This document shows, piece by piece, positions 38,503 to 63,354 of a DNA stretch of 64,000 nucleotides (within the stretch, counting starts at the first letter, position 1; every line of letters begins with the position of its first letter). The notes under the pieces were generated by a model. The model was not told the origin of the DNA and searched no databases. It worked only from the letters and a program-made list of their open reading frames with translations. Source of the stretch: Candidatus Dadabacteria bacterium (GTDB lineage: Bacteria > Desulfobacterota_D > UBA1144 > Nemesobacterales > CSP1-2); NCBI GenBank assembly GCA_040289575.1, contig PSLL01000006.1:24583-88582 (forward strand), given 5' to 3'. The translations under genes and the position numbers were made by a program.

Positions 38503-38545
38503 ATTGAGGAGGGGGTTCGAAACCCGTCGCTTCTAAATAAACGAA

Positions 38546-39730: not shown

Positions 39731-39781
39731 AAATTTATATAGGGGCAATTCATGAATTGCCCCTACTGAATCTAAACCCAA

Positions 39782-41305: not shown

Positions 41306-41435
41306 TTAAAGCTTTATATATGTGGAATATTGAAATTTTTGATTAGAATATACTATTTCGCATTGCCAAAAATATTATTTTGTTCTTTAATATCAGACCA
41401 AATAATTATTATTAAATCTCCAGGAGGAATAAACT

Positions 41436-41975: not shown

Positions 41976-42152
41976 TCGGCACCTTATTTTTTATCATTAT
42001 TACCCGATCCCTGTCCTTTCCTTCAGCCGTGATTTGCCCGTTTATAATCCCTTACAAACACTAATCAGACGGATTTGGTATGACTTATCCGAAATAACAA
42101 AACAAATTATGGATTTCTCTGCGCTGAGCTATAAAATATAAGATCCAATATA

Positions 42153-43910: not shown

Positions 43911-44074
43911 AAACAACATAAGGGTGACAAAATAAAGGAAACTCTATATATTAAAACACACAGAAAATCTAATACTTGTAATTGCTTATACTGAAATTCC
44001 TTCTGTATGAGGAATTATCCTATTTGATTCGCGAATTTGAAATTAGAAGAATAATTTGTTAGAATTAGCAGAGG

Positions 44075-45946
44075 TTGAATAATAAACGGGAGAACTACAA
44101 TATGGGTAAGAAAACAGAGAAATTAGAGAAGGTTACGGTGAAATTCGCGGGAGATTCGGGAGACGGGGTACAGGTCTTGGGGGATCAGTTCGGCAACGCC
44201 ACCGCCGTCGTCGGCAATGACTTTGCAACCCTGCCCGATTATCCGGCAGAGATAAGGGCGCCGCAGGGAACGACTTATGGCGTCTCATCGTATCAGATTC
44301 AATTTGCCGCCTATGACATATATACCCCCGGCGATATTCCAGATGTTCTTGTTGCTTTCAATCCGGCGGCATTGAAGGTTAACCTGACATCCCTTAAGCC
44401 CGGAGGTTTAATAATAGTAAATGAAGACGAATTTACCGAACAGAATCTCAGAAAAGCCGGGTTTACATCAAACCCCTTGGAAGACGATTCTTTAAGCTCA
44501 TTCCGCATCTATAAGGCTCCTATTACAAAGCTCACAATTGAATCCCTAAAAGACGAACCGATCGGGCACAAGGATAAAGAGAGATGCAGAAACTTTCTTG
44601 CCCTTGGGATGATGTGCTGGCTGTTTTCACGCCCGCTTGATCCGGTTATAAACTTCCTTCAAAAGAGATTTGCCAACAAGGCCCAGATCTTTGAAGCAAA
44701 TCTAAAAGCACTCAAGGCCGGATATAACGTGTGCGACACCATGGAGATATTTCCGATCCATTACCAGCTTCTGCCCGCAAAGCTGGAGCCCGGAAAATAC
44801 AGGAATATAAACGGAGCTCTCGCAACCGCCTACGGGCTTGTAGTCGCCGCGCATAAGTCAGGCTTGCAACTCATATATTCGGGATACCCTATAACGCCCG
44901 CAAGCGAGGCTTTGCACAACCTCGCCGCCTTAAAACAATACGGTGCGATAACCATTCAGGCAGAGGATGAAATAAGCGCCATAACCATTGCACTAGGTGC
45001 AACCTATTCGGGAGCCCTAGGCGTGACGGGAACAAGCGGTCCCGGACTTGCTCTAAAGAGTGAGGCACTTAACCTTGCGGTCATGACAGAGCTTCCGCTT
45101 ATAGTATTCGATTTTCAAAGGTCTGGGCCTTCAACAGGAATGCCGACAAAAACCGAGCAGACAGACCTGCTCTTTGCGCTTTTTGGAAGGCCTGCCGAAT
45201 CGCCGGTTATAGTACTTGCTCCTCTGTCCCCAGCCGATTGCTTCTGGACATCCATTGAAGCCGTAAGGCTCGCTACAAAGTATATGACGCCCGTTATAGT
45301 TCTTTCCGAGCAGTTCCTTGTACATTCATCCGAGCCTTGGAAGCTCCCCGATTTAAACCAGATCCCACCAATAGAGGTAAAATTTAGAACCGATCCAAAT
45401 GGTTTTCACCCATATATCCGCGACGAAAAAACCCTTGCAAGACCCTGGGTAAAACTCGGAACAAGAGGGCTTGAACACACCCTGGGGGGGCTTGAAAAGA
45501 GCAATATCTTTGGAACAATATCATACGACCCTGAAAACCATGACCTTATGAACAAACTGAGGGCGCAAAAGCTCCAAAGGGTGGCCCAGGATATACCTGA
45601 TGCCCAGGCTGTGGGCCCTTCTGATGCGGATGTAGTTGTTGTGGGATGGGGAGGCACATATGGACACATAAAGGCGGCTGTAGAATCGGCAAATCAGGAT
45701 GGAATGAAGGTATCAATGATACAGCTAAGGCACCTCAATCCCCTTCCCAAGAATCTCGGTGATCTATTGCGGAGATTCAAAAAGGTTCTTGTCCCTGAAC
45801 TGAACCTGGGGCAACTCTCATATATAATACGTGCCAAATACCTTATTGACGCTACAGGATACAATAGAATTACGGGAAAGCCGTTTACTGTATCCGAGCT
45901 TTTAAACTTTATTAAAGATGAGTATGAAAGTTTAAGAATGCATTAA
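44075..45946 (+). CDS. korA: 2-oxoacid:ferredoxin oxidoreductase, alpha subunit with a fused N-terminal gamma-like domain (KorA)
   Basis: POR gamma-type N-terminus (VKFAGDSGDGVQVLGDQFGNA) followed by alpha-subunit domains. Confidence 0.85.
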   Translation: MNNKRENYNMGKKTEKLEKVTVKFAGDSGDGVQVLGDQFGNATAVVGNDFATLPDYPAEIRAPQGTTYGVSSYQIQFAAYDIYTPGDIPDVLVAFNPAALKVNLTSLKPGGLIIVNEDEFTEQNLRKAGFTSNPLEDDSLSSFRIYKAPITKLTIESLKDEPIGHKDKERCRNFLALGMMCWLFSRPLDPVINFLQKRFANKAQIFEANLKALKAGYNVCDTMEIFPIHYQLLPAKLEPGKYRNINGALATAYGLVVAAHKSGLQLIYSGYPITPASEALHNLAALKQYGAITIQAEDEISAITIALGATYSGALGVTGTSGPGLALKSEALNLAVMTELPLIVFDFQRSGPSTGMPTKTEQTDLLFALFGRPAESPVIVLAPLSPADCFWTSIEAVRLATKYMTPVIVLSEQFLVHSSEPWKLPDLNQIPPIEVKFRTDPNGFHPYIRDEKTLARPWVKLGTRGLEHTLGGLEKSNIFGTISYDPENHDLMNKLRAQKLQRVAQDIPDAQAVGPSDADVVVVGWGGTYGHIKAAVESANQDGMKVSMIQLRHLNPLPKNLGDLLRRFKKVLVPELNLGQLSYIIRAKYLIDATGYNRITGKPFTVSELLNFIKDEYESLRMH

Positions 45947-45967
45947 AACTAGAGGGGGAAAAGACGA

Positions 45968-46981
45968 ATGAGTGTAACAGAGCAAGAGGTAAAATATAAA
46001 TGGACTGATTTTAAATCCGATCAGGATGTAAGATGGTGTCCCGGCTGTGATGACTATGCAATACTCAAGGCATTCCAGATGGCACTTGCCGAAATCGGCA
46101 TCCCCAGAGAAAAACATGTCGTGGTATCGGGGATCGGCTGTTCTTCAAGACTCCCCTATTACATGAGCACATACGGATTTCATGGAATACACGGAAGACC
46201 GATACCCATTGCAACGGGTGTGAAGGTGGCAAATCCCGATCTCTCGGTGTGGGTTATAACTGGAGACGGGGACGCTCTATCTATAGGTGGTAACCACCTT
46301 ATACACGTTATGAGAAGGAATGTTGATATAAAGATATTGCTCTTTGATAATAGGATATACGGTCTTACAAAGGGTCAATACTCTCCCACAAGCAATAAGG
46401 GAATGATAAACAGGTCTGCCCCCATGGGAACTGTGGAAGAGGCCGTAGAACCAGTTGCCCTTGCGCTTGCCTCAGGAGCGAGTTTTGTAGCGAGGACGGA
46501 TGCCGCATATTTAAGGCACCTTGTGCAGCTCATTGTAGAGGCACACAAGCACAAAGGAACGGCCTTCTTACACATATATCAAAACTGCTATGTATATAAC
46601 GATGGTGTATTTGATGATTTCACGGCAAAAGAGATAAGGGATGATAGAAACATTATAGTCGAGCACGGTAAACCCCTTATATATGGCAAAAAAAGAGACA
46701 AGGGCTTAAGATTCAAAGGAACTAAATTTGAGATAGTAGAGTTTGAGCCGGGAAATCCGCCCGAGGATATTACGATTTACGATGAGACAAACCTTGCGTT
46801 TGCCTTTGCACTTTCAAAGCTCTACTGGCCCGAATACCCAGTGCCTATGGGAGTGCTAAGAAGGGTTGAGCAACCAAGCTTTGAAGAACTCATCTACGGA
46901 CAGGTAGAAAGAGCAAAACAGAAATTCTCAACAGACCTAAATAAACTCATATACTCAGGCGATGTTTGGGAAGTAAAATGA
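45968..46981 (+). CDS. korB: 2-oxoacid:ferredoxin oxidoreductase, beta subunit (TPP-binding, KorB)
   Basis: CPGCDDYAIL… and GIGCSS…GDGDALSIGGNHLIH TPP motif. Confidence 0.9.
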   Translation: MSVTEQEVKYKWTDFKSDQDVRWCPGCDDYAILKAFQMALAEIGIPREKHVVVSGIGCSSRLPYYMSTYGFHGIHGRPIPIATGVKVANPDLSVWVITGDGDALSIGGNHLIHVMRRNVDIKILLFDNRIYGLTKGQYSPTSNKGMINRSAPMGTVEEAVEPVALALASGASFVARTDAAYLRHLVQLIVEAHKHKGTAFLHIYQNCYVYNDGVFDDFTAKEIRDDRNIIVEHGKPLIYGKKRDKGLRFKGTKFEIVEFEPGNPPEDITIYDETNLAFAFALSKLYWPEYPVPMGVLRRVEQPSFEELIYGQVERAKQKFSTDLNKLIYSGDVWEVK

Positions 46982-46993
46982 GATATTGAATCG

Positions 46994-47017
46994 TAGGGGG
47001 CAAATGGCCGCCCCCTA
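46994..47017 (+). terminator. Stem-loop TAGGGGGC-AAATGGCC-GCCCCCTA after korB
   Basis: 8-bp perfect inverted repeat 13 nt after the korB stop. The downstream U-tract is weak. Confidence 0.35.
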
Positions 47018-47130
47018 CAATGTGTCTGCCCCCCGATTAAGTTATTTAGAACCATAAAGTAGAGTATATCCATTATAGATAGGACATTTCCATAGAGAAA
47101 TGGTATAATTTTTCTTGAGGAAGATTCCGA

Positions 47131-47718
47131 ATGGCGATAAAGGTAAAGGTCATACAACCGCCAAAGTTGAGTCTTATCGAGAGACTCTATATCCCTGAGA
47201 TACTCAAGGGTCTAAAAACAACCCTTATGCACCTCCTCCGGTTTCAACCCATAACCGTACAGTATCCAGAAGAGGTAAAACAACTCCCTCCGAGATACAG
47301 GGGGCTTCATATCCTTCCCGCAGATGATGAAGGAGAGATAAGATGCGTCGCATGTAAGCTCTGCGAGGTTGCATGTCCAACTCAGGCAATATCAATTGTA
47401 TCTGAGCCTGCAGATGAATACGGGATTGAAAGAAGACCAAAGGTTTATAATATAGACTTCATGAGATGCGTTTTTTGCGGATTCTGCGTTGAGGCTTGCC
47501 CGTGTGATGCCTTGAGAATGGGGATGAAATACGAACTTGCATCATACAGTAGAGCCGGTCTTATCCATACAAAAGAGGTCTTCTTTGACCCAAACGTAAG
47601 GAGTAGAGCGCCAAGGGACAATGCAAATTTTCTATATGAAAGGGAAAAGGGCGATATCTTAGATAAACCCGAAGAGATTGAATATGTAAAAAAGCTCTCA
47701 GGAACTTATACCCCCTGA
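47131..47718 (+). CDS. NuoI-like 2x[4Fe-4S] ferredoxin (NADH-quinone oxidoreductase subunit I homolog), stand-alone
   Basis: NuoI N-terminal region (…LKTTLMHLLRFQPITVQYPEEVKQLPPRYRG) and two CxxCxxCxxxCP motifs. Confidence 0.8.
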   Translation: MAIKVKVIQPPKLSLIERLYIPEILKGLKTTLMHLLRFQPITVQYPEEVKQLPPRYRGLHILPADDEGEIRCVACKLCEVACPTQAISIVSEPADEYGIERRPKVYNIDFMRCVFCGFCVEACPCDALRMGMKYELASYSRAGLIHTKEVFFDPNVRSRAPRDNANFLYEREKGDILDKPEEIEYVKKLSGTYTP

Positions 47719-47750
47719 AGACAATTAACTCCTGATAAAGACAAAAGGTT

Positions 47751-48782
47751 ATGAAAGCAGTAGTAGTCTACGAACACGGTGGAATTGACAAGTTAAAATA
47801 CGATGAGGTACCAGACCCAGAGGTTCGTGTAAATGATGTCCTCGTACAAGTAAAAGCCTGTGGGATAAATCACCTCGATATCTGGGTGAGGAAAGGGCTT
47901 CCCCACCTCAAACTCAAGTACCCTCATATCCTCGGTTCAGATGTGTCGGGGGTTGTGACAAAGGTAGGAGAAGACGTCCGTGGAATTGAGGTAGGCACAC
48001 CTGTTTTAATATCGCCGGGAATAACGTGCGGAAGATGTGTCCACTGCTTAAGCGGTCGAGATAACCTCTGCAGAGAGTATGCGATCCTGGGTGAGAACTG
48101 TCTTGGCGGATGTGCAGAATACATATCAGTTCCAAAGGAAAACATCCTTCCCATGCCAAAGAACATCTCCTTTGAGGAAGGAGCCTGTATTCCTCTTGTT
48201 TTTCTTACCGCCTGGCATATGCTGGTATCTCGCGCGGGGATTAAAATGGGAGAAACTGTTCTGATTCACGCGGCAGGGAGTGGTGTTGGAAGCGCAGCCA
48301 TACAGATTGCAAAGCTCTTTGGAGCAACTGTAATTACCACCGCCGGAACAGATGAAAAGCTAGAGAAAGCAAAAACCATCCTCGGTGGCGATTATGGAAT
48401 CAATTACAGCAACCACGATTTCTTTGTCGAGGTAAGAAGGATTACGGGGAAAAGAGGCGTAGACATCATTGTAGATCACACGGGAGAGATAAACTGGGAA
48501 AGAAACATTCTTGCGCTCGCAACGGGCGGAAGAATAGTTGTCTGCGGCTCCACATCCGGATATGATGGGAAAACAGATATAAGACACGTATTCTTCAGAA
48601 GGCTCTCGATTCTGGGCTCCACTATGGGAAGCAAGGGGAATCTGTTTGAGGTCATAAAGCACATTGAATCAGGCAAACTCAAACCCGTGCTTTACAAAGT
48701 TCTCCCTATGTCTCGGGCTGCCGAGGGACATAGACTTATAGAGGATAGAGAGGTGTTTGGAAAGGTAGTGCTAGTCCCATAG
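47751..48782 (+). CDS. Zinc-dependent alcohol dehydrogenase / MDR-family oxidoreductase
   Basis: GroES-like N-terminal domain, structural-zinc Cys cluster (CGRCVHCLSGRDNLC), Rossmann AAGSGVGSAAIQ. Confidence 0.85.
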   Translation: MKAVVVYEHGGIDKLKYDEVPDPEVRVNDVLVQVKACGINHLDIWVRKGLPHLKLKYPHILGSDVSGVVTKVGEDVRGIEVGTPVLISPGITCGRCVHCLSGRDNLCREYAILGENCLGGCAEYISVPKENILPMPKNISFEEGACIPLVFLTAWHMLVSRAGIKMGETVLIHAAGSGVGSAAIQIAKLFGATVITTAGTDEKLEKAKTILGGDYGINYSNHDFFVEVRRITGKRGVDIIVDHTGEINWERNILALATGGRIVVCGSTSGYDGKTDIRHVFFRRLSILGSTMGSKGNLFEVIKHIESGKLKPVLYKVLPMSRAAEGHRLIEDREVFGKVVLVP

Positions 48783-48787
48783 TCAAG

Positions 48788-50417
48788 TTAGTAGACAACC
48801 TTAAATATATCCATATCCTTAATTACCCAATTATCAACCGGTCTACTCTTAAAAGACATTATCAAAATGAAGTGTTTAGACCATTCATTATTATAAACCT
48901 CATACAAGTAAGAACGCCTTTTTATATTCTCTGTGTCCAACATCAAGTAACTGATTTGCATTTTTTTAAAATCTTGAATCGCACCCTCTAAGTTATTATA
49001 AATACCGGGTCTAAAGGTAGCCACACCCAATTGCTTGGATGATAAATTTAATAGATTTTTACTACCGATTTTGGAGTCTGTAAGGATCATTTCAATCAAA
49101 TCGCCGCCCTCAACAATCGCTATGTTCCCGTGCAGGTTGCTTGCCGCCCAGATTGCCCAACTATCCCGAACCTTAGGAGTCGCAATGCTTGTACCATTCG
49201 CAATACTCAGATGAATACTCAGTGGGATACGCACAAAAAGTAATAGAATAAATAGCAAAACTAAAATATTATTTCTATTGCCCTCTCTGAGAAGATCAAT
49301 CAAGAATTTCGATGAAATAACAAAAGTAAAGGGTAGCAGTACGTACAAATATCTTGGATTGCCATAAACCTCAAATACAGGGATAAAACCTGCAACGAAA
49401 ACAAAGAAAAGAATAAAAATTAGATCGAATCTTGAAAACCTCTCTAAAATAAGATACTTAATGCCGCCAAGGAAAAATAAGGCCAACCAAACCTCCCCCA
49501 GTAGTAATATAGAATTGATTCGCTACTTTGAACAAACCGTGATAGATAAATTTTCTAAAATAGTCATCAATCTTATGTGTTCTTAAGTAATTAATAAAAG
49601 ATGGGTTAAGGGTACCTTTCAGCGATGCTTGTGTATTGAAGTCTGCAAAGTATTGTGAATTCTTGCCAAAATCAAAAGCGGATCCATATGACTTATATCT
49701 CATATACAGGTCGGGCAGTGACACTAAAAAGAACAGAAATGGCACTAACAGTAGAAATGACCGGCTTAAGTTTGCCTTCTTATACCACAGTAACCACACT
49801 AGATACAGAAGGACAACACCCAGCATAAATATGCCATTGGGCCTCACATAATTTGAAAAACCAGCCAAGATGGTGGCAATGACAATTCTGTGCGATTTGT
49901 TTGCGGAATCCGCCAAATAATACACCGTTGATATAACCAATAAGATAAAGAGCGGTTCACTGTATCCCGAGTATTCCAAGCCGCCTGTACGTATCAATAT
50001 TGGAGAGAGTGCAAAGGCAAAAACAGCAACTATAGAAGATTTTTTATCAGTTAATTTATTAGCAAGGCCAGAAAAAGGGAAAATAGATAAACCCATAATC
50101 AAAATAGACAAAACTCTTGAAAGAATCATTCCATCAAAAATTGATCGGATACCGAATACCTTGAGAAAGGCGGCTAGCACTATTGACCAGCCAATTGAAT
50201 GGCTGTGCATAGGAATCCAATTTCCCTGTGCTATTTCAAAACCCTTTATTAGATAATAATACGCATCTTCCCGCAACACATCATTAAACGGTGTAGAAAA
50301 GGTCATTAATGTGACCATTAAGAGAAAACAAGAGGTTGTAAACCATATATATTTCGAGTATAAGTAGGGAAATGCAATATCTAATTTATTGTTTATATAG
50401 TTAATAGCATCTATCAC
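48788..50417 (-). pseudogene. GT39/GT83-like (ArnT/PMT_2-type) polyprenyl-phosphate-sugar-dependent membrane glycosyltransferase, split by a frameshift near 49460-49490
   Basis: The N-terminal 319-aa ORF carries the PMT_2/ArnT first-loop motif (REDAYYY…). A 232-aa ORF in another frame continues the multi-TM protein. The ORFs overlap at 49458..49486 next to a CCCCC run. Confidence 0.6.
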
Positions 50418-50511
50418 GATTTAACCTTTTATGCACTATGTGAAAGCGTACACCAGCCATTAAATTTTTATGGCAATATGAGACTACCATCCGACAATTT
50501 TTTAATAGTCT

Positions 50512-51543
50512 TCATTTCCTCCCTTTAACCGTACCACTACTCTTCTTTTTTGATATGAGAAAACCCCAGAAGAAGCCTATTTTATTGGAGATTTCAAATA
50601 AGAACATAAAAGGGAGATATAGTAAGAACTCTCCTACCGAACTAGACTGTCGTGCTCTCCAAAAAGCACTGAGTAATGTACCCGACTTTCCCATAATTCC
50701 CCATAGTATCAACCGAAACGAGCCTACAGAACCGTTCGAGTACTTCTTGTGATAACTCCAACCGTTGCGGCCAGTATCAAAGCACTTACTAACTGTATCA
50801 AGAACGCTCCTTCGACCGTACCGATGCCTGATCCGATGGTAGGGATAATAGTAAACCGGTATGCCTTCGGCACGTAGGCGCCTAGTCATGTCTGTATCCT
50901 CTGCTCTAAGTAGCGATTCATCGAAAAGCCCTACCTTCTGGAAGACTTCCCTCTTGAACGCAGCCCCTCCCGCTGCCTCTAGGTCGTGTTGTGTTGTTAT
51001 TTTTTCTTCTATAACCGACAGCCTTCGCCATCTTCTCTTCAATTTTTCTAACCAGTGTTCATCTAAAATTTCTTCACAAGATAGGCGCCTTCTAACACTA
51101 ACATCAAAGTAGAAATGGCTAACCCTGCTAAAGAAATCTTCCTCGGCTGCAATGATCTTGAATCGCACCACCATTGCACGGGGATTCTCCTGAAAAAACC
51201 TAATTATGGTTTCGGCATAATCAGGAGCCATTATGTAATCGTCAGCCACAATTGCAATTATGCCCCCGGAAGCATTGACAATGCCCGTGTTTCTCGTCGC
51301 CGGGATTCCCTTATGAGTTTGCCGACAGTACTTCAATCCCGGGTGACTCAGTGATATGCTCTCCATCATGCCCTCTGTACCATCTGTTGATCCATCATCT
51401 ACAACTATTATCTCTAGATTTTCCCTCGGTACAGTCTGAGAAAATAATGAATCCAAGCAACCACGGAGCATATCTTTGCGATTATAGGTCAAGACGATAA
51501 TGGATAGCACTCCAGGTTTTCCTCTGGTCATATTCAAATCCAC
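50512..51543 (-). CDS. Glycosyltransferase family 2 with a C-terminal hydrophobic segment (DPM1/GtrB-like polyprenyl-phosphate glycosyltransferase candidate)
   Basis: GT2 N-terminus (LSIIVLTYNRKDMLRGCLDSLFSQTV…EIIVVDDGSTDGT). Confidence 0.75.
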   Translation of the reverse strand: MDLNMTRGKPGVLSIIVLTYNRKDMLRGCLDSLFSQTVPRENLEIIVVDDGSTDGTEGMMESISLSHPGLKYCRQTHKGIPATRNTGIVNASGGIIAIVADDYIMAPDYAETIIRFFQENPRAMVVRFKIIAAEEDFFSRVSHFYFDVSVRRRLSCEEILDEHWLEKLKRRWRRLSVIEEKITTQHDLEAAGGAAFKREVFQKVGLFDESLLRAEDTDMTRRLRAEGIPVYYYPYHRIRHRYGRRSVLDTVSKCFDTGRNGWSYHKKYSNGSVGSFRLILWGIMGKSGTLLSAFWRARQSSSVGEFLLYLPFMFLFEISNKIGFFWGFLISKKKSSGTVKGRK

Positions 51544-51615
51544 GGTTTACACCTACCCCTTGAAATTAGCTTATCAATCATATCTAGAGGTGCATCAAAG
51601 AATAAGACGGTACGA

Positions 51616-52479
51616 TTAAAGGAGATTTCTCATCTTTATCATATCTCTCAGTTTCCAGTATTTCATGCTCAATCGCCAACTGAATCCGAGCAATATCGCC
51701 AAGAAATGAGAGTGCTGCCTTATATCAACTTTGTGCTTTTTCTCGTCCGCAATAATAAATTCCTCACCGTATTTCCTTCTTATGTAATACTCACCCTTGG
51801 TATACCAAACCCTCTGTTTTATTAAACCCACCAGCGAATCTCTACAATCCAGATAGGCGATAATATCGTCTGATTTATACAAATCGATTCCATTTTCCTG
51901 CAAACGGAGATAAAGGTCATAGTCCTCTCTCGATGGGAGTGATTCATCGAATAGCGGATTTATCATCCTTAAGAGTGTTCTCTTAATTGAAAAATTGCCC
52001 GACGACAGTCTGTTTACTCGATAGAGCCTACTGTCTTTCTTATTAAAAACTGCATCGTAGTTATAGAACCAGAAGTTGGAGTAGAAATCGTCCCTTAGCC
52101 TCTTAAGGTTCCCATTGAGCACCATTACCTCGGGATGCTCTTTGTGGACTCGAATTGTCTCAAGAATATAGTTTCGTTCGACTATGCAATCATCATCCAG
52201 GAATATTATAATGTCGCCGGTGCTTTGACTTAGGCCGTAGTTTCTTGCAAAGCTTGGACCTCTATTTCTATCTAACGAGTAGAGTCTGAGAAAAGAATAT
52301 TTTTTATCCAATAGATAGTTCATTTGTTTATCTGCCACACAATCACTATGGTCGTCTACAATGAGTACTTCTAAATTTATTTCTAATCCGTGTTCCCTGA
52401 TCTGTGGAATCAAGGAATTTAATAGATTGGCTAGCTTATTAAATCTGTTATACGTGGGAATAATGATTGAAACCTTCAT
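51616..52479 (-). CDS. Glycosyltransferase family 2
   Basis: GT2 N-terminus (VSIIIPTYNRFNKLANLL…LIVDDHSDC…FLDDDC). Confidence 0.8.
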   Translation of the reverse strand: MKVSIIIPTYNRFNKLANLLNSLIPQIREHGLEINLEVLIVDDHSDCVADKQMNYLLDKKYSFLRLYSLDRNRGPSFARNYGLSQSTGDIIIFLDDDCIVERNYILETIRVHKEHPEVMVLNGNLKRLRDDFYSNFWFYNYDAVFNKKDSRLYRVNRLSSGNFSIKRTLLRMINPLFDESLPSREDYDLYLRLQENGIDLYKSDDIIAYLDCRDSLVGLIKQRVWYTKGEYYIRRKYGEEFIIADEKKHKVDIRQHSHFLAILLGFSWRLSMKYWKLRDMIKMRNLL

Positions 52480-54272
52480 GGTCTTGTTATCTTAACAATC
52501 GCTTCCTCGGGCAGTGCATAAATCCATGTAAGCCCCCGGCGCAAAAGGAATGGGCGTCCAAATAGGTCGTGGAATTGGATCGGATCACTACCGTGAATTC
52601 TGTACCAGGTTGCCCCCTCTGATCTGGGGCCACACCAAATCTGGGCTGGGCCCTCTCCATATGTATCAATTCGCAGCCGTCCCTGAATGTCGCCGGGGAT
52701 GTTGGTCACACGTACCCAAATTAGAACCAGGTTGGCAATCAAGAGATTGGGATCACCCGTTGCATCCTCACCCACCGGCGTATTGAGAACCGTCCGTCGG
52801 AATCCCCCGGCCAAACCGTCCCACTCGAATCGTTCTGGATAGGGAGCACGGGGACGCGAATGGACCTCAATCCGTACTCGCGCCGTTCCCTCGTCATCCC
52901 GAATTGCCTCATCTCGGAAAATAGTAGAGAGTCCCGGACAGTAATGCGCAATTAGATTAATACCTGCTGCTGTTGATTGCTCTAGACCTATAGGGGAAAT
53001 TATGGTCAGTTTATCCAATTGCCCAAAGATACGCTCGGGAACAATAAAGATATTATGCGGAGGAGTCCGCCCGTCTTCTGTCGCAAGAATCTGTGCATTC
53101 TGAAGAACCTCAGGCTCACCAGATGCACCTATATGATAACGGTATTCAATATCAATCACGCGCTCCAGATGCTCGAGAAGAGTCCGTGATTCGGGGCTTC
53201 CACCGCAGTGGACATAGAAAGGCTGATAGGCTCCGGCCCACTCGATAAAATATGGCCGGGCGCTCCGTACCGGTCCCACTCTGTCACTGAAAATCCGGGT
53301 GAAGACAGGCATAAGACGCGTCAATCCACCTTCAACTGGAGCCTCGATGATAAGGGATGCACCAGCCAATCCCAGCTGTGGATGTGAACGGCTAGAGTTG
53401 TCAACCATCACCGCAGGCAAGCCGCACCAGAGGTCAATTCTATTTTTATCACCATCAGATGCATTGCTTCTTACTACCATTGGAAAAGACGCCACGCGAG
53501 TTTCAGGAAGTATCCAGTCAAATGCGGCACTGAAGGCATAAGTCTCAGGCAGTCGGCGATCGGCAAGCCGGTGATATTCCATAAGTAACAGATACAATGG
53601 CCTGTATAAGAATCGTGACCTCAGCACCAGTCGGCATAAGAGCAGATAGAGACTCAAGATTCGGGATCGATGTCCCAGTTCATTATTGAACATCCACAGC
53701 GCCGTCACCGGCTGAAGGAGGCTGCTCTTGTTGACTGTAATCGTCTCGTTCTCAACGAATCCCTCATGCTGAAGGAGGAATTTCGTGTACCGGAGCGAGC
53801 GAAGACCATAATATCCCACGGCGTCTATGTGATGACGAGTATATTCTTCTGGAAAGCACTTTGCCCAACGAATAATGGGTTTCGATGAATCCAGGTCTAC
53901 AAAGAAAATCAAACGCCCGCCCGGACGAAGCACACGTTTAATCTCGCGCAATGCGGCGACGAATTGCCTCTCAGTTAGGTGCTCGAACATCCAAATACTC
54001 ACCACCGCATCCACTGAACGATCTGATAAAGGCAGCCGCTCGACCTGTGAACGAATGACCCGATTGTATATTGATGCGGCGCTCTGAAGCGCCCCGGCGC
54101 CATAATCCACTCCCGTTACACGTCCAAATTCTGTCAGAAATTCCCAGCCGCCACCGCAACCCAAGTCAACGATCTCTAATGGATAACGACCAAGCCGTGC
54201 CAGCATCGGTCGCAAAAGATGGGTATGCCCCAGTGGATATTCCGCCGGAGCAACCACCCCAACGGTCCCCAA
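52476..54272 (-). CDS. Class I SAM-dependent methyltransferase fused to a ~400-aa C-terminal domain of unknown function (possibly DUF3048-like); GC-rich compositional outlier
   Basis: Motif I VDLGCGGGW and post-I LRPGGRLIFFVDL. The C-terminal domain contains GGLTRLMPVFT…GPVRSARPYFIEWAGAY. Local GC is visibly higher (~55%) than the flanks (~35-40%). Confidence 0.7.
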   Translation of the reverse strand: MGTVGVVAPAEYPLGHTHLLRPMLARLGRYPLEIVDLGCGGGWEFLTEFGRVTGVDYGAGALQSAASIYNRVIRSQVERLPLSDRSVDAVVSIWMFEHLTERQFVAALREIKRVLRPGGRLIFFVDLDSSKPIIRWAKCFPEEYTRHHIDAVGYYGLRSLRYTKFLLQHEGFVENETITVNKSSLLQPVTALWMFNNELGHRSRILSLYLLLCRLVLRSRFLYRPLYLLLMEYHRLADRRLPETYAFSAAFDWILPETRVASFPMVVRSNASDGDKNRIDLWCGLPAVMVDNSSRSHPQLGLAGASLIIEAPVEGGLTRLMPVFTRIFSDRVGPVRSARPYFIEWAGAYQPFYVHCGGSPESRTLLEHLERVIDIEYRYHIGASGEPEVLQNAQILATEDGRTPPHNIFIVPERIFGQLDKLTIISPIGLEQSTAAGINLIAHYCPGLSTIFRDEAIRDDEGTARVRIEVHSRPRAPYPERFEWDGLAGGFRRTVLNTPVGEDATGDPNLLIANLVLIWVRVTNIPGDIQGRLRIDTYGEGPAQIWCGPRSEGATWYRIHGSDPIQFHDLFGRPFLLRRGLTWIYALPEEAIVKITRP

Positions 54273-54502
54273 CCACGCTGCTCTCGGTACGACGTTGTCC
54301 AGCGGCTATCATGCGGAATATCACCCTCGACGAATCTGGCAATACCGTCTTCCACCAGCCAGGGACCGTGACCCGCTGTGCACACTAAAGTTCCCCGACC
54401 GTTTTTTACATCACACTGAAGGGCAATGTGACAATCGGGGCAGATCAGATCATCGGATCGGAAGGACATAAGGTTGTGAACCCTATCATATAGAACATTC
54501 AT
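54176..54502 (-). CDS. Trm112-like zinc-ribbon ORF overlapping the annotated start of the methyltransferase (possibly its frameshifted N-terminal domain)
   Basis: LICPDCHIALQ…LVCTAGHGPWLVEDGIARFVEG matches the Trm112/YcaR CPxC…C…(aromatic)x[IV]xDGI[PA]x[FLM][LV] pattern. The 3' half of the ORF overlaps the MTase ORF in another frame. Confidence 0.45.
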   Translation of the reverse strand: MNVLYDRVHNLMSFRSDDLICPDCHIALQCDVKNGRGTLVCTAGHGPWLVEDGIARFVEGDIPHDSRWTTSYREQRGWGPLGWLLRRNIHWGIPIFCDRCWHGLVVIH

Positions 54503-54511
54503 AAAATATTC

Positions 54512-55426
54512 TCATGAATCTCTATGTCGAATCTCTAAATTCGGCATCCCCCAGCACTCATACCCCATATCATGAGCCATCATACCTAAACCCTCTGTTT
54601 CTATCTCTCCAATATAAATTCCTTTCAAAATATGTAGGATCTCTCTTCGTGCTTCTAGTATATTTCCTTTTCTTATTCCTCTTAGAGCACTTAGTACCGC
54701 TCTCCTTATTATGGCTCTTTTTGGTTCAAGGTAATGGTTTCCCCTTATAAGTGGATTTTTTCTACCATACAAGAACGGAGGGAAAATCAACCCGTCTCTA
54801 TGAATATCCGCTTTTATTAAAAGCATGGTCCCACCCACAGCATGTAATTTTACTAGATCACTCTCATTTCTTAGGTCATGCATGTGTAATTTCCCTTTAT
54901 CCCTCCAGGCATTCAGATCGAAGCTCATACAGCCGTATTGCGTTAAGCAATACGGCTGTATGATGTCTTTTCCGGTTGCTAAAAGTTTTTCTATAATATC
55001 AGGAGGATACTCAATGACATCAACATCTATCCACAGGACCCAATCCTCATCATCAAGTGCATGAAAAAGGAGATGGTTTCGACTCCTTGCAAGTATAGTT
55101 CTTCTCTCTATTTGGATGTGTCCGGCCCATCGGGGTGTGCCCGGCGGTATATGAAACCCAAAATCCCTTTTCCACAGCCTAGCAGACCGGAACTCTTTTC
55201 TTAGCCCCGAAAGTGATTTTTCCAATTCAAGATAGGTGTTGTCTACGCTATCGCCTTCCAAGAATCCGAGGGAGATCAAGTTATGTGGGTAGGTTAATTT
55301 ATAGAGGGACTGAAAATAGGTTTCTAAAAACGCTTCGGCATCTTTAACCGGAGTTAATATAAGAACCTTGTCCCTATATTCCATAGCCACCCACCCTCCT
55401 CTATTTTCATGATAGGAAGTAATCAA
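54512..55426 (-). CDS. GT62-like glycosyltransferase (Anp1/Mnn9/Van1 family alpha-1,6-mannosyltransferase homolog)
   Basis: Several blocks match the fungal mannan-polymerase family: KVLILTPVKDAE…LTYPHNLISLGFL; DWVLWIDVDVIEYPPDII; HAVGGTMLLIKADIHRDGLIFPPF; ETEGLGMMAHDMGYECWGMPN. Confidence 0.65.
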   Translation of the reverse strand: MITSYHENRGGWVAMEYRDKVLILTPVKDAEAFLETYFQSLYKLTYPHNLISLGFLEGDSVDNTYLELEKSLSGLRKEFRSARLWKRDFGFHIPPGTPRWAGHIQIERRTILARSRNHLLFHALDDEDWVLWIDVDVIEYPPDIIEKLLATGKDIIQPYCLTQYGCMSFDLNAWRDKGKLHMHDLRNESDLVKLHAVGGTMLLIKADIHRDGLIFPPFLYGRKNPLIRGNHYLEPKRAIIRRAVLSALRGIRKGNILEARREILHILKGIYIGEIETEGLGMMAHDMGYECWGMPNLEIRHRDS

Positions 55427-55640
55427 CCGGAATTGATATAACTAGCTCTTTCATAAATATCAGTATTATATTGTGTAGTCTCATATCGATACCATTGATT
55501 GAGTATTGTTTCAAGCTTCCGGTAGAATCTGCTTTACCACATTCGACCAAGCTCGATCAATTAATATAAGTTTGGGTACTTTCTTGGTTAGATCATTCAT
55601 TATTTCCTGTTTGGTGCTCTTCCTTGCAATAAAGGTCAAA

Positions 55641-57030
55641 TTAAAATATCGGCTTGCTGATCTCCTCTGGGAATAAGCCTGGACTGGATTTGTTTGTATG
55701 ATCTCCTAATATGTATATGTAATCGTTGTTTTTAGTGTGTTCCTTTATCCATAGACCTAGCTGTTTATATCGCCCATATTCATCGTCGACACCTTTAATA
55801 TTTATACTATAAAACCTGTAAAGGGTTTGGTATGGTGCCCACAATATTGCTATTATGACTATAGTCTGGACGATGTATCTTCGCCTCTCTGTTTCTCCAA
55901 TTAAGTTAGCTTGAAATAACACATTGATTGCTATTCCAGAGGCGAGCGCTATCGACGGTAGAATTTGTTTGAATTGATGTCCCAAATAATATCCAGATGC
56001 ATTTACACCTAGAAAATCCAAGCCGATCCAGAAAACAATGCCTCCAAATGGTATCTTATTATCTATTATCCTTTTTTCTGGACAATAAATAGTAAGATCA
56101 ATGGATAGAATAAAACTATTTTAGAATGTCCCCAAGCATCAATAAACTTCCCAATCCTTATTTTATAATCGGCACTGCCCCCTTCCTTCTGCATTAAAAT
56201 TAACCATGCATCCTTGAAGTAATCAATCATAGTAACGCCACTTGCCAAAAGAGGAATTAAACTGAGACACATAGGAAACACAACAGCTGCGAATAAGAGA
56301 AATGAATCTCTAAAAGTACTTTTATAGGTTAAGGAACGTTTATCACCTAAGCCTAATAAAAATGCAAATAGTGCAATAGCACTAAGTATTGCAGTTTGCT
56401 TAAAAGCAATTGCGATTCCCATAAAGAATCCAGCAATTAAGGTGTCTCTAATATATAATAAAAGGCTTCTTGCTTCCTGGGCCTTTAAAAGAAATAAGAA
56501 AGCGAGAGTTGAAAATAAAACCATGAATGATTCAGTCTGTGCGGTATATGCTCCATCCATCAGCCTTCAAATCATGCTGAAGCCAAAGAGAATCATAGTG
56601 AGGACACCAACTAAATGATTGCATAATTTTCGTCCAATTATATAAAGTAAAATTGAAGTCGTAACAATAGATAAGCTAGCCAGAATTCTCGGAAACCAAA
56701 TATTTAGATCGAATAGAAGATTGGAAATGACAAATACTATATAGATGCCCGGAGTCTTATTCTCAATGGCTCCGATGTATAGAGGAATCCCATACTTAAT
56801 CCATAGAAAAGCAATATAATTCCACATCCCCTCGTCATTGCCCATGTATTCACTGAAAGATGCAATTAGAAGCAGGGAAAAATAATTATTGCTACTATAA
56901 TAGGACTGGTCACAACCCTATAAAGACTATTATATAAACCCATCTTATTCATACTTTTCGGTCTCAAAAAATAATCTCTTGTCAAGACCAATTCTTTCTC
57001 CAAATGACTATTTACATGGAAAGAAAGCAT
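55641..57030 (-). pseudogene. Second GT39/GT83-like (ArnT/PMT_2-type) membrane glycosyltransferase, broken by two frameshifts and an in-frame TGA
   Basis: Consecutive minus-strand pieces: 56863..57030 (first TM helix), 56567..56845 (DEGMWNY…ENKTPGIY loop motif), 56066..56560 and 55641..56021. A TGA at 56567-56569 separates two pieces in the same frame. Confidence 0.6.
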
Positions 57031-57131
57031 TATTCACCTCTATCTATAGCCGTATCCGTTCCCTGAATAGCCACCTAAGGTTCTATGTATGTAATCACAA
57101 CTAGATGAGAATAGGCTAAATTATAAAGTAA

Positions 57132-57935
57132 CTACTCGTAATCCTTAGACAGATAGTGCGAAACCACTTTGCGGGTTTCGTCATTGATCACAATCCTTCC
57201 TTTACTTAAAAGAATCGCTCTATCACAGAGGTTCTCAATTGCTTTCATATCATGGCTTACAAAAAGCACCGTTCGTCCTTCAGATGCTACGTCCTTCATC
57301 TTATTGAGGCACTTCTCCTTAAATGCCCCGTCTCCTACCGCTAAGACCTCATCCAACAGCATAATCTCTGGCTCCAGGTGTGTGGCAATGGCAAAAGCAA
57401 GGCGCACATTCATACCGCTTGAGTAGTGCTTAATTGGCGTATCTAAAAAATCCTCTACTTCTGAGAATGCCACAATTGCATCGAATTTGCGGTTGACCTC
57501 TGCCCTTCTCATCCCCAAGATTGTGCCACCGAGGTATATATTCTCCCTTCCTGTCAGTTCGGGATGGAAGCCGGTACCAACCTCAAGCATCGAACCCATC
57601 TTACCATAGATTTCAGCATAGCCCTCCGTTGGCTTTGTAATCCGAGAAAGAATCTTAAGAAGAACCGATTTACCGGCGCCGTTAGAGCCGATTATGCCCA
57701 CCACCTCGCCACATTTAACCTCAAAGGAAACATTCCTTAATGCCCAAACGTATTTGTCATCTTCTGATCGCCGTCTGCTGTGATTATTCGTTCCATAACG
57801 AATGGCAGAGGAAAAACGACGAAATGGTGCGCGCATGACGTCCTCTAAGAATTCGCGCATGGCGTTGGTCGCTCTCGGCCGATCTATAAGAAAGCGCTTG
57901 CTAATACCTATAGCCCGAATTGCGAGGTTACTCAT
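57132..57935 (-). CDS. wzt: Polysaccharide/O-antigen ABC exporter ATP-binding protein (Wzt/TagH/KpsT type, no C-terminal carbohydrate-binding domain)
   Basis: Walker A GSNGAGKS, ABC signature YSSGMNVRLAFA, and the typical N-terminal region of glycan-export ATPases. 267 aa. Confidence 0.85.
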   Translation of the reverse strand: MSNLAIRAIGISKRFLIDRPRATNAMREFLEDVMRAPFRRFSSAIRYGTNNHSRRRSEDDKYVWALRNVSFEVKCGEVVGIIGSNGAGKSVLLKILSRITKPTEGYAEIYGKMGSMLEVGTGFHPELTGRENIYLGGTILGMRRAEVNRKFDAIVAFSEVEDFLDTPIKHYSSGMNVRLAFAIATHLEPEIMLLDEVLAVGDGAFKEKCLNKMKDVASEGRTVLFVSHDMKAIENLCDRAILLSKGRIVINDETRKVVSHYLSKDYE

Positions 57936-57938
57936 CTC

Positions 57939-58796
57939 TTACACCACATCGGCAAAGGCATCTTCTTTATATCTGAAGAAGTATAATCCCCCTACAAGTA
58001 GTGCGATTACCACTATAATTGAAAAAGTAAGTAGCATAGTTGGAGGATGTGTCTTTCCTAAAAGCGCCCATCTGAAACCCTCGACTACACCAGCCATTGG
58101 ATTAAGGCCGTAAATCGCCCGCCATCGTTCCGGCACCAGGCTACTCGGATAGGCAATAGGGGTTGCAAAGAGCCATATTTGAGTCAGAAATGGCAGAGTA
58201 AATCCCACATCCCGATACCTGACATTCAAAGCAGCCAACCACAACCCAATCCCCAAAGCCGTTGCTACTGCTAGTATGATAAAAAGAGGCAGCGCCCACA
58301 AAGCCATTGTTGGAACAATCCCATAAAACAACATCATTCCAATCAGCATGACAAACGTTATTGCGAAATCCAAAAACCCAGTTATCACAGTAGTCATTGG
58401 AATTATAAGCCTTGGGAAATAAACCCTAGTAATCACAGCCCTATTATTTACCACGCTGTTGCTTGACTGGGTCAATACATTGACGAAATATGTCCATGGC
58501 ACAAGCGCACTGTATGCAAATATAGGGTAAGAAATCCCTTCGGAAGGCACCCTTGCCAGTTTGCCAAAGAATACGCTTAACACCACCATGGCGATAAAAG
58601 GCTGGATGACAGCCCATGATGCACCAACTATAGTCTGTTTGTATCGCACCTTAATATCACGCCACGCAAATAAGTAGAGCAAATCCCGGTACTCCCATAA
58701 CTCACGGAGGTTGAGCAAAATCCCCCTACTCGTAGGTCGAATTATAGTCGTTGGGCAATCAGATGAATCTACACCTATGAATTTGATCCCTTTCAT
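57939..58796 (-). CDS. wzm: ABC-2 type polysaccharide export permease (Wzm)
   Basis: Six TM helices with the Wzm N-terminal motif (YRDLLYLFAWRDIKVRYKQTIVGASWAVIQP). The start is placed at the internal ATG 58794-58796, which has an AAAGGA RBS 5 nt upstream. The longer ORF (to 58928) would overlap the upstream GT2 by 124 nt. Confidence 0.8.
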   Translation of the reverse strand: MKGIKFIGVDSSDCPTTIIRPTSRGILLNLRELWEYRDLLYLFAWRDIKVRYKQTIVGASWAVIQPFIAMVVLSVFFGKLARVPSEGISYPIFAYSALVPWTYFVNVLTQSSNSVVNNRAVITRVYFPRLIIPMTTVITGFLDFAITFVMLIGMMLFYGIVPTMALWALPLFIILAVATALGIGLWLAALNVRYRDVGFTLPFLTQIWLFATPIAYPSSLVPERWRAIYGLNPMAGVVEGFRWALLGKTHPPTMLLTFSIIVVIALLVGGLYFFRYKEDAFADVV

Positions 58797-58804
58797 TGTT
58801 CCTT

Positions 58805-59488
58805 TCACAGTTGCCATTGCACAAATAGGGATTTCAGCCAACGCTTTATTCGGATCCGGTTTGCCATTTGCAAGCCGAGTGCATGACGGAGCGGTTCTGA
58901 CAGATCCAACAATAATTGATACCTCCATGACCTTCGGCTTTTATAAAAATATATAAACTCATCAATAAAATGCTCTCTCTGTAAAGCCCCGTCCCAACAG
59001 ATTCTCATAGCCCAGTCAATATCCTCAGAATAGCTTATATCCTCAAATTTATAACGGAGTGCAATTTCGCGTTTCATCGGGTTAAGATGATACGGCGGTC
59101 TGAAGTATACCCCTCCCCTTGAGAAATACTCTCTGTATCGTAGTGAATGTATGAAAATGCGCGGTTTTTTTCCACCAAAGGTAATTATGCCCTTGATCCC
59201 GATACAATCAATATCCAGATTCTCTCTTATCACACTACAAATGAGAGGAATGTAATTGTTGCTAACATCATCGTCGTCATCAATGAAAGCGACGAATCTC
59301 CCCCTTGCCCTCTCTATAAGCCTATTTCTCTTGAATCCAAGTGAGTATTCCCTGTTGTCTAAGAGATACAAAATCTCTACTTCATCGGCAAGGGAATTAC
59401 CGGTTATTTGATTACTCAGTTTTTCATATAGTCTATGAAATTGTTCCTTTCTGCTATCGAGAGTCGGTATGAGAATACTGAATAGCAT
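58805..59488 (-). CDS. Small glycosyltransferase family 2 (227 aa)
   Basis: GT2 N-terminus (FSILIPTLDSRKEQFHRL…FIDDDDDVSNNY). Confidence 0.7.
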   Translation of the reverse strand: MLFSILIPTLDSRKEQFHRLYEKLSNQITGNSLADEVEILYLLDNREYSLGFKRNRLIERARGRFVAFIDDDDDVSNNYIPLICSVIRENLDIDCIGIKGIITFGGKKPRIFIHSLRYREYFSRGGVYFRPPYHLNPMKREIALRYKFEDISYSEDIDWAMRICWDGALQREHFIDEFIYFYKSRRSWRYQLLLDLSEPLRHALGLQMANRIRIKRWLKSLFVQWQL

Positions 59489-59498
59489 TTATAAAGTC

Positions 59499-60353
59499 TC
59501 AGTTATGATTATCTTTATTTGCACTTACTGGTATTTCCAGCCAGTGTGAAAGGTCGCGCCTCAGGATGTCCTGAGTCTGTAATATATCCTCCCGGTAATA
59601 TTCAATCAGCCACTCACGCACCTCAGTCTGAAGCTCCGGTTTTCTTAGATTGCTTTGCCTAAGTCCCCCTAGAATCACGTCCCAGACCTTTAGTCGAAGT
59701 TTTAGTCGAGTCTTCTCAGATAAGAACGGTCTCAATATATCCGAGATAAAATTCGGCTGAGTTAGAAAGGTGTTAAGCTTCACATTTATTGGATAACCGG
59801 AGACATTATGTCTGGCTGGGGCCTTGATCACAAGTTTCCCATCCAAATCAAGGAATTGAACTATACTCTTGATTAATTCCCTTGGATTCCGCTGCAAATC
59901 CTCAAAGAGGAAAACCCCAATCTGCTCATGGCAAAAAAGAGACAAATATCGCGCAATCTGTTCAGCGTAAAGCCCCATTCTTCGATAAAACCAGAACGGA
60001 GACCAACCATTACGCATCCTTTCTTCCTCCGCATTGATCGCTTCTCTAAAATCATCGAGATTTTCATACTCCAAAAGTCTGTGATGGAGAAAGTGAGAGT
60101 ATGCCCTGTCTATTGGATTGCGCAGGATAGCTATGATTTTGACATCCGGTATATAGTGCTTAATTCGATAAGGGGCTTTTGGGCTATAAAGGTAAAGAGG
60201 AGAAGCTTCTCCAATAGCCTTCTCATCCCGAACCCCGGAAAAGAGAGAACAATAGGTTTTAATGTCTCGTATCCCTTGGTTATCTTTAGGTCCCCGAAAC
60301 GGTTCGCTTTCCCCTTCGACCGCAAAGAATAGTGGCTCCTTTATAGAACTCAT
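59499..60353 (-). CDS. Sulfotransferase-family protein lacking the N-terminal 5'-phosphosulfate-binding loop (probably truncated)
   Basis: 3'-phosphate-binding motif RNPIDRAYSHF and the IKEPLFF region typical of PAPS sulfotransferases. No K-x-G-T-T loop is encoded. The ATG overlaps the TGA of the upstream GT4 fragment (ATGA). Confidence 0.6.
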   Translation of the reverse strand: MSSIKEPLFFAVEGESEPFRGPKDNQGIRDIKTYCSLFSGVRDEKAIGEASPLYLYSPKAPYRIKHYIPDVKIIAILRNPIDRAYSHFLHHRLLEYENLDDFREAINAEEERMRNGWSPFWFYRRMGLYAEQIARYLSLFCHEQIGVFLFEDLQRNPRELIKSIVQFLDLDGKLVIKAPARHNVSGYPINVKLNTFLTQPNFISDILRPFLSEKTRLKLRLKVWDVILGGLRQSNLRKPELQTEVREWLIEYYREDILQTQDILRRDLSHWLEIPVSANKDNHN

Positions 60354-61108
60354 GAAAATCTGCGGGTTCCGATTACGTGTAAATGAATATCCTCACCATG
60401 CAACCTCACTTCCGACAATATATCTATTATATTTTCTAATCTCTTCTCACCAGAAATCCTCCCAATGCATACAAAACCATTCTCTCTCTCCTGCCAGGGC
60501 ACATCTGGGAAGAGACCGGGAACTGGAGGATATACAGTTGTCGTCTCAATTCCATAAGATTCTCTGCACTTGATTCCGGTCCAGTCCGAATTTACCAGGG
60601 TGAGGTTCTCTTTCATTCTTTCAAACGAATAACCCGAAATCGCCATCCATGGCCGGTACTGACCACGCACTATACCCCATAGGCATTGATACCAAGGAAG
60701 ATCAACGAACTGCTGGCATATAGGCTCGAATCGAGGAAACCAGGGGTAGTGAACATATTGGATTCCCCTGCAGCCGAGGTCAGCCTCCCCGTTGGCGGTG
60801 ATAATAACATCGTAATCGCCATTCATCTTCTTGCACAGGCGCATGAGAAAGGCAAACTTTTGTGCGCTGTGGGGGTCGGGGTCAAGCTCTATTAAACCGC
60901 GTATGAGCCGGGGAGTATAATAGACCTTGAAATCAGATGAGCTGAGAGATGTTCCAAAGAACCGGTTGATCGCGGCAACACTAACGGGTGCCCAAGTCAG
61001 AACAGAAACCGAGTTTTCTCGTTTCAGAGCTTCAATCATCCATACTGCCACAGCATTTCCACCGCCCAGTGGCTCAAGGCTGGGCTGCACAAGTAAGACC
61101 TTTTTCAT
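60350..61108 (-). pseudogene. N-terminal two-thirds of a GT4 glycosyltransferase (paralog of 62150..63331) lacking the C-terminal catalytic half
   Basis: ~60% identical over 250 aa to the N-terminal domain of the 393-aa GT4 at 62150..63331 (…NLTLVNSDWTG…TTVYPP.P..FPDVPW.ERENGFVCIGR…HLH.IGT). It then terminates where the full copy continues for ~140 aa. Confidence 0.65.
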
Positions 61109-61129
61109 CGAGGACGTCTATGAAATCGG

Positions 61130-62146: not shown

Positions 62147-62149
62147 GGT

Positions 62150-63331: not shown

Positions 63332-63354
63332 TCAATAATTCTACAAACTATTAG

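Follow-up and report, generated by a model that had tools for sequence, protein, structure and literature searches.

Two interrupted GT-C glycosyltransferase genes and the probable irreversible erosion of a Wzm/Wzt surface-glycan locus in uncultured Candidatus Dadabacteria

When a bacterium carries two broken genes for membrane glycosyltransferases, has it switched them off or is it losing them? The question is raised by a 64,000-nucleotide (nt) stretch of a Candidatus Dadabacteria genome (assembly GCA_040289575.1, contig PSLL01000006.1, positions 24,583 to 88,582), hereafter the window, whose proteins are exact matches of proteins MER3446034-49 of a metagenome-assembled genome (MAG) at NCBI. 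Six minus-strand genes lie within 48788..57030, and two of them, gene 1 (48788..50417) and gene 2 (55423..56952), encode GT-C-type glycosyltransferases. Both are split into open reading frame (ORF) fragments, as a first-pass annotation of the sequence had noticed. The same annotation combined them with the GT2 glycosyltransferase at 50512..51543 (GT2_343) into a periplasmic glycosylation module and took the frameshift of gene 1 for a possible phase-variable site. It was right in outline and wrong in key detail. Comparison with sister genomes suggests irreversible loss by ordinary mutation: gene 2 is a pseudogene of long standing, and gene 1 was recently knocked out while the Wzm/Wzt glycan locus around it eroded in one haplotype. 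We regard this explanation as probable.

The break in gene 1 involves the following features.

48788..50417, minus strand: gene 1, a 542-codon gene for a GT-C_A-fold glycosyltransferase, frameshifted into ORFs 49458..50417 (319 amino acids, aa) and 48788..49486 (232 aa)
49508, minus strand: the gene 1 lesion, a single inserted base (A on the coding strand, T on the plus strand)
49495..49499, minus strand: a C5 run (G5 on the coding strand), of the same length in all six assemblies

Base-by-base comparison with intact alleles reveals exactly one lesion in gene 1, the single frameshift that had been predicted. One base has been inserted at 49508, outside any repeat; on the coding strand the site is written TTCTAT[A]TTACTACTG or TTCTAT[A]TTACTACTGGGGG, and this base is the lone difference of the window within the gene. 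The frameshift had been placed in the C5 run, at ~49487-49491, and the run had been read as a slipped-strand site. The run is found at 49495-49499, however, and the lesion is a single A between T residues (TTCTAT_TTAC) that precedes the run by 9 nt on the coding strand, with no change in repeat copy number. The length of the run, expected to vary within the population, is identical in 6/6 assemblies (the window, L013, L001, L002, L011 and L012). An invariant run and a frameshift in all strains had been named as the marks of a fixed pseudogene. The run is invariant, but the frameshift is not general: in four assemblies (L001, L002, L011 and L012), each with >=99.8% identity to the window across the aligned locus, gene 1 is intact.

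The intact alleles are known from two sequencing chemistries and two sites. Three of the four assemblies were traced to Antarctic geothermal soils; SRR29483436 and SRR29483437 are PacBio HiFi metagenomes from Mt Rittmann and Mt Melbourne geothermal soils (PMC11413225), and SRR13254584 is an Illumina metagenome from Mt Melbourne soil (PMC7953305). Gene 1 is also intact in the relatives L004, L005 and L006 (71-83% protein identity). Homologues read FY(L/S)LLGEVW straight through the insertion site, and the insertion is therefore derived. Against these relatives, the ratio of nonsynonymous to synonymous substitution rates (dN/dS) is 0.18-0.19 in each half of the gene. Therefore, gene 1 works in the lineage, and its knockout is recent. 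Programmed frameshifting or recoding of gene 1 is ruled out by the sister alleles, which lack the extra base.

The insertion itself occurs in one other assembly, a Joint Genome Institute (JGI) contig (L013, sample 3300003453) that matches the window with 100% identity across 9,839 bp, insertion included. This contig and the window MAG probably come from the same sample, and the prefix 'ERB_' in the contig's name may point to Mt Erebus. Scans of JGI metagenome contigs, with a gapped pattern (0/1 base at the site, G4-G6) or with the upstream 30-mer, returned no further population alleles; they also missed L013, whose sample evidently lies outside the collection scanned. In L003, a 78%-identical relative, gene 1 (10001..11379) ends after ~331 codons and is followed by an IS200/IS605-type Y1 transposase gene, near the contig end. 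Here a mobile element has disrupted gene 1 in a separate event.

Gene 2 has five lesions, where the first-pass annotation had seen at least three, and is an old pseudogene that has become fixed.

55423..56952, minus strand: gene 2, an ArnT/GT39-type PMT_2 pseudogene in four ORF pieces, with its stop at 55423-55425
56875-56882, minus strand: lesion 1 (5'-most), a -1 frameshift in T5C3
56567-56569, minus strand: lesion 2, TGG to TGA at a conserved Trp by a single G to A change
56072-56077, minus strand: lesion 3, A7 to A6, in the window only
55690-55697, minus strand: lesion 4, a 4-nt ACAA duplication
~55516, minus strand: lesion 5 (3'-most), a +1 insertion

The ORF pieces measure 54, 92, 164 and 126 aa. 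Four of the five lesions are identical in the sister contigs, lesion 3 alone being private to the window, and 56071, 56781 and 56961 are the only positions that differ from these contigs. A five-piece reconstruction aligns end to end (99% of its length) with intact PMT_2 proteins of 505-508 aa at 57-64% identity, the best intact relative being 64% identical. It passes the Pfam PMT_2 threshold with 52.9 bits (E 6e-14), while separate fragments score 36.0 and 20.9 bits. Recoding of the TGA is ruled out by the four other lesions and by its origin from a conserved Trp codon through one base change. To call the two GT-C genes paralogous, as the first-pass annotation did, is too strong. They share no BLASTP similarity (E 2.8), which rules out recent paralogy, and are linked only by profile-profile comparison with hhalign, as remote homologues (probability 93.8%, E 1.8e-7, 17% identity).

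Both genes belong to an ABC-transporter-dependent (Wzm/Wzt) cell-surface glycan locus, which occupies 48.8-64 kb of the window. Besides gene 1 and gene 2, the following genes of this locus enter the argument.

50512..51543, minus strand: the GT2 glycosyltransferase GT2_343, 343 aa (Pfam PF00535, E 1.9e-29)
51616..52479, minus strand: a second GT2 glycosyltransferase, 287 aa (Pfam PF00535, E 4e-24; NCBIfam)
52476..54502, minus strand: a broken S-adenosylmethionine (SAM)-methyltransferase-DUF3048 fusion gene (Pfam; sister-contig comparison)
54512..55426, minus strand: an Anp1/Mnn9-like (GT62-type) glycosyltransferase (Pfam Anp1, E 2.3e-53; yeast Mnn9, PDB 3ZF8, E 9e-23)
57132..57935, minus strand: Wzt, the ATPase of a polysaccharide-export ABC transporter (Pfam ABC_tran; NCBIfam TagH/Wzt, below the equivalog cut-off)
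57939..58928, minus strand: Wzm, the permease of this transporter (Pfam ABC2_membrane; NCBIfam Wzm/KpsM-like, below the equivalog cut-off)
58805..59488, minus strand: a small GT2-like glycosyltransferase, 227 aa (Pfam PF00535, 25.8 bits)
59499..60353, minus strand: a sulfotransferase remnant that has lost its first ~28-31 codons (gene calls of L016 and L017; BLAST breakpoints)
60350..61108, minus strand: a GT4 remnant, cut after ~242 codons (gene calls of L016 and L017; BLAST breakpoints)

The assignment of the locus rests on the Wzm-type ABC-2 permease (PF01061) and the Wzt-type ATPase (PF00005) that lie amid glycosyltransferase genes. In addition to GT2, GT4, GT10 and GT62-like glycosyltransferases, the locus holds sulfotransferases, the methyltransferase-DUF3048 protein and the two GT-C genes. 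Nine glycosyltransferase genes or remnants are present in the window locus: three GT2, two GT4, one GT10, a weakly GT2_4-like gene of 338 aa, the GT62-like gene and the GT-C pair. Exact-sequence look-up of the 319-aa ORF of gene 1 and of a 393-aa GT4 returned no record. The related locus L005 has no gene 2 between Wzt and Anp1. The Anp1/Mnn9-like protein is a bacterial homologue of fungal Golgi mannan-polymerase subunits, has no obvious membrane anchor, and is of a type unusual for a bacterial glycan locus; the position of its gene beside gene 1 or Wzt is conserved in the relatives L005 and L006.

Lesions private to the window are concentrated in this locus. Against the sister haplotype, the window has ~26 substitutions and 7 indels in ~62 kb. 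The glycan locus makes up ~23% of the window and holds five of these indels (binomial P ~0.009). These five are the gene 1 insertion, a C4 to C3 change, a 33-nt deletion, the A7 to A6 change in gene 2 and a 2,441-bp deletion. The C4 to C3 change (54221-54223) frameshifts the methyltransferase-DUF3048 gene, and the 33-nt deletion, in frame and between short repeats (~53408-53414), affects the same gene. With L005 as outgroup, this gene also has three derived nonsynonymous changes, at 52570, 53167 and 53813; its counterparts in L001, L011 and L012 are unbroken (675-686 aa). The 2,441-bp deletion, defined against the sister contigs L016 and L017, has its junction at 60364-60375 with a 3-nt microhomology (CCG). 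A GT4 gene, of which ~242 codons remain, is thereby joined to a sulfotransferase without its N-terminal GAPRSGTT segment, presumably the PAPS-binding loop. The deletion also removes one whole sulfotransferase gene and one Glyco_trans_1_2 gene, so that four genes are removed or truncated. Nine of the ten substitutions in the locus change an amino acid or lie in the pseudogene. According to outgroup polarisation, the three methyltransferase changes, one change in gene 2 and one in GT2_343 are derived in the window lineage.

Two private frameshifting deletions lie outside the locus, as seen against the sister contig L015. A 10-nt deletion (23408) splits an MFS transporter gene, which encodes 442 aa in L015 and 244+166 aa in the window, and an 11-nt deletion (24229) gives an RND (ACR_tran) pump gene a changed C-terminus.

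Over tens of kilobases of window positions 1340..64000, identity to L001, L011, L014, L015 and L016 is 99.83-99.97%. These contigs come from Mt Melbourne and Mt Rittmann soils (Illumina, HiFi) and from run SRR29089225; one near-clonal Dadabacteria lineage is common to the sites. The JGI contig L013 stops exactly at the junction of the 33-nt deletion, which hints at allele heterogeneity at this deletion in the JGI sample. L002, from the Mt Melbourne HiFi data, has G4 at the equivalent of window position 52804, where all others have G5, and its methyltransferase-DUF3048 gene is frameshifted; this may be a homopolymer assembly error or a further independent lesion. Broken genes are found in relatives as well. 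L005 (6469..9908) has a frameshifted methyltransferase-DUF3048 gene, an internally deleted GT2_287 and a twice-frameshifted GT2_339, and L006 (5392..6266) has a frameshifted Anp1 gene, gene 1 being intact in both. Either the locus has eroded repeatedly, or the breaks are noise from the assembly of these MAGs.

On this account gene 2 is the old, fixed loss, with four inactivating lesions that all available near-identical assemblies have in common and a fifth that is private to the window. Gene 1 appears functional in sister populations and related species, where purifying selection acts on it, and would recently have been knocked out in the window haplotype by the one-base insertion, alongside the other private loss-of-function lesions of this locus. 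The haplotype therefore seems to be shedding part of its glycan-decoration machinery by irreversible mutation, without on/off switching. Several points weigh against this account. The source is a MAG with assembly-level data, and the insertion may not be the fixed, or even the majority, allele in its population. L013, probably from the same sample, is not an independent biological confirmation. The changes C4/C3 (54221-3) and A7/A6 (56072-7) affect homopolymers, an error type of some sequencing platforms. The lesions are enriched in the glycan locus and not exclusive to it, and genome-wide drift or assembly quality may account for them. Finally, the biochemical role of gene 1 is one that we infer entirely.

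If the small indels were consensus errors of the MAG, gene 1 and the methyltransferase-DUF3048 gene would both be intact in the organism. The two private homopolymer changes fit such an artefact, as does the unusually high ratio of indels to single-nucleotide polymorphisms (~7:26), and the HiFi-derived G5 to G4 difference of L002 shows that differences of this kind can be technical. The gene 1 insertion, however, lies outside any homopolymer, and over 9.8 kb L013 agrees with the window at every base. Deletions of 10, 11, 33 and 2,441 nt with microhomology at their junctions do not arise from base-calling errors. In addition, three derived nonsynonymous substitutions in the broken methyltransferase gene are what is expected once a gene is released from selection. 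The larger deletions, and the fact that a second assembly gives the same sequence, lead us to argue that most of the indels are real, and we consider an artefact unlikely. Phase variation would make gene 1 a contingency gene that is switched by slipped-strand mispairing at a homopolymer. Genes for surface-glycan modification are classic phase-variable loci, on and off alleles of gene 1 do exist among near-identical genomes, and short homopolymers differ elsewhere in the locus (A6/A7, C3/C4, G4/G5). These varying tracts (3-7 nt) are nevertheless shorter than tracts known to be hypermutable, and one of them sits in gene 2, which four other lesions had already inactivated. The off allele occurs in one haplotype only, which also has irreversible deletions. 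With the inserted A changing no repeat number and the suspected run identical in every assembly, phase variation at the proposed site is essentially excluded, and a contingency gene of this kind is extremely improbable.

A broken gene 1 could also still be of use, if its 232-aa part were re-initiated at TTG 49486 and paired with the 319-aa part as a two-piece enzyme. The G5 run and the following AGG form a GGAGG-like motif 5 nt upstream of this TTG (coding-strand GGGGGAGG), and the upstream ORF stops 26 nt further on. The frameshift falls at residue ~305 and separates the last four predicted transmembrane (TM) helices and the periplasmic domain from the catalytic N-terminal module, a division that might suit a split enzyme. 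But the break lies inside a predicted TM helix (283-324), and the Shine-Dalgarno-like sequence merely encodes the conserved LGEVW, in intact alleles too. No relative has a naturally split gene 1, and several other genes of the locus are lost in the same haplotype. A functional split gene is highly improbable.

Could gene 1 instead be the transferase of a three-component periplasmic module, with GT2_343 as lipid-sugar synthase and a flippase alongside? Such systems consist of a polyprenyl-phosphate sugar synthase, a flippase and a GT-C enzyme, and they occur with ABC-transporter-dependent O antigens (PMC11127046). GT-C enzymes of the class of gene 1 generally use polyprenyl-phosphate sugars. 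The window, L003 and the sister contigs all have GT2_343 next to gene 1, and the moderately hydrophobic C-terminal helices of this GT2 could perhaps associate with the membrane. Of the module as first annotated, the GT-C part is present twice, inactivated in both copies, and the GT2 is a genuine PF00535 protein; its likeness to DPM1 or GtrB is not supported by NCBIfam, PDB profile, structure or hydropathy. GT2_343 belongs to a large family of ~335-aa GT2s, and its best NCBIfam matches are EpsD and MftF-type chain-building enzymes. Compared with the PDB, the family profile matches chondroitin synthase with 134 bits over residues 9-225, far above DPMS (36.7), GtrB (26.3) and ArnC (23.3 bits), which match over the N-terminal ~95 residues only. 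None of the latter three is among the top 50 Foldseek PDB matches of the AlphaFold2 (AF2) model (mean predicted local distance difference test score, pLDDT, 89.5). No 19-residue window of GT2_343 reaches a Kyte-Doolittle value of 1.6 (maximum 1.4), so a strongly hydrophobic TM pair is missing. GT2_343 is a generic glycan-building GT-A enzyme, not specifically GtrB/DPM1/ArnC-like.

The proposed flippase is missing as well. No gene of the Pfam families GtrA, SMR or MATE is present among the called genes of the sister contigs, which cover ~1.3-64 kb of the window and 8 kb beyond. Apart from Wzm/Wzt, the search met only an EamA gene, which lies at ~32.4-33.3 kb and is not linked to the locus. In relatives, gene 1 is intact where the GT2 has two frameshifts (L005) and where no such GT2 stands beside it (L006 and L004); the coupling of gene 1 to the GT2 is therefore not conserved. 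Like GtrABC of Shigella and Salmonella and its Klebsiella and Citrobacter variants (PMC11127046), the window has a GT-C enzyme beside a glycan locus, and in the Klebsiella and Citrobacter examples this locus is ABC-transporter-dependent, as here. Unlike those systems, it has no recognisable polyprenyl-phosphate sugar synthase, no flippase gene and no conserved linkage of GT-C and GT2. The three-component model is unsupported and in our view quite unlikely, though a donor synthase may be encoded elsewhere in the genome.

What, then, did gene 1 encode? Its reconstruction has 19 homologues at E<=1e-3 in a word-limited search, 17 of them full-length enough for alignment. Among them is an intact protein of 99% identity (P0001), and a cluster look-up added an intact protein of 542 aa (P0047). 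The protein has a multi-pass N-terminal membrane module, and its predicted structure superposes on solved GT-C_A enzymes. Gene 1 is a member of a small, uncharacterised orphan GT-C_A family. Its relation to PMT_2 (PF13231) is distant. Searching this family, as the first-pass annotation had advised, recovered the gene 2 reconstruction but not gene 1, whose 319-aa fragment scores 25.9 bits against a gathering score of 26.1, and the intact 542-aa P0047 has no PMT_2 match at E<=0.01. Some relatives of gene 1 do carry a precomputed PF13231 hit. Judged from its sequence, gene 1 appears to be a remote relative of PMT_2 and not a clear member. The family profiles of gene 1 and gene 2 found no matches in the PDB by sequence.

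The acidic motifs noticed in the first extracytoplasmic loop of both proteins are real and conserved, and by analogy with their families they would be catalytic. In gene 1 (VLREDAY), D51 is invariant in 17-19 homologues and E50 is not. In gene 2 (NDEGMWNY), D66, E67, W70 and Y72 are invariant in 9 sequences. Intact gene 1 would act on the periplasmic face, using D51 in the transfer of a sugar from a polyprenyl-phosphate-linked donor, and the acceptor may be the exported glycan or another envelope acceptor.

Members of the gene 1 family come from Dadabacteria-like bacteria and from a small number of other MAGs. Among GTDB species representatives, the nearest gene 1 locus has 82% protein identity. 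The neighbourhoods of three distant relatives (L007, L008 and L009) have no common partners. In L008, an Altiarchaeota MAG, two copies of the family lie ~700 bp apart (9905..11542 and 12246..13877), each 31% identical to gene 1 and with a VLR(K/E)D first-loop motif. Therefore, this rare family spans bacteria and archaea.

Two known groups of GT-C enzymes resemble gene 1 in part. From the ArnT or GT39-GT83 transferases it is set apart by its score below the Pfam PMT_2 threshold and by the 17% profile-level identity to the gene 2 family. Over its whole length, the architecture of a TM module and an AglB-like C-terminal globular domain is closest to that of the oligosaccharyltransferases. In the STT3/AglB/PglB enzymes, however, the C-terminal periplasmic domain begins with a WWDxG motif, and this motif is not present in the gene 1 family alignment. 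Inspection of the alignment instead shows a conserved P414..D418-x-W420-A421-x-W423 in the segment after the last TM helix. Gene 1 might thus found a distinct, rare GT-C_A family and transfer the Wzm/Wzt-exported glycan en bloc onto a protein or lipid, as an oligosaccharyltransferase or ligase without WWDxG. We consider this idea very doubtful. If it were true, the exported glycan would possibly be sulfated or methylated, and the loss of gene 1 together with that of sulfotransferase and methyltransferase genes would mean that a whole surface glycoconjugate was lost.

We return to irreversible loss as the probable explanation. O-antigen, capsule and other surface-glycan loci of closely related strains likewise show frameshifts, nonsense mutations and deletions on a near-identical background. 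Unlike those pathogen cases, the locus studied here belongs to uncultured Dadabacteria from apparently isolated geothermal-soil populations. The finding opens no long-standing question. It corrects the idea of a phase-variable three-component module, which fails once sister genomes are compared, and it matters for MAG annotation, as six or more genes of the locus are absent or survive as pseudogenes or remnants. Minor leads are an unstudied GT-C family and a bacterial GT62 (Mnn9/Anp1-like) enzyme. For the organism, near-identical populations of Antarctic geothermal soils suggest that a surface-glycan locus in an uncultured phylum is undergoing strain-specific, irreversible erosion.

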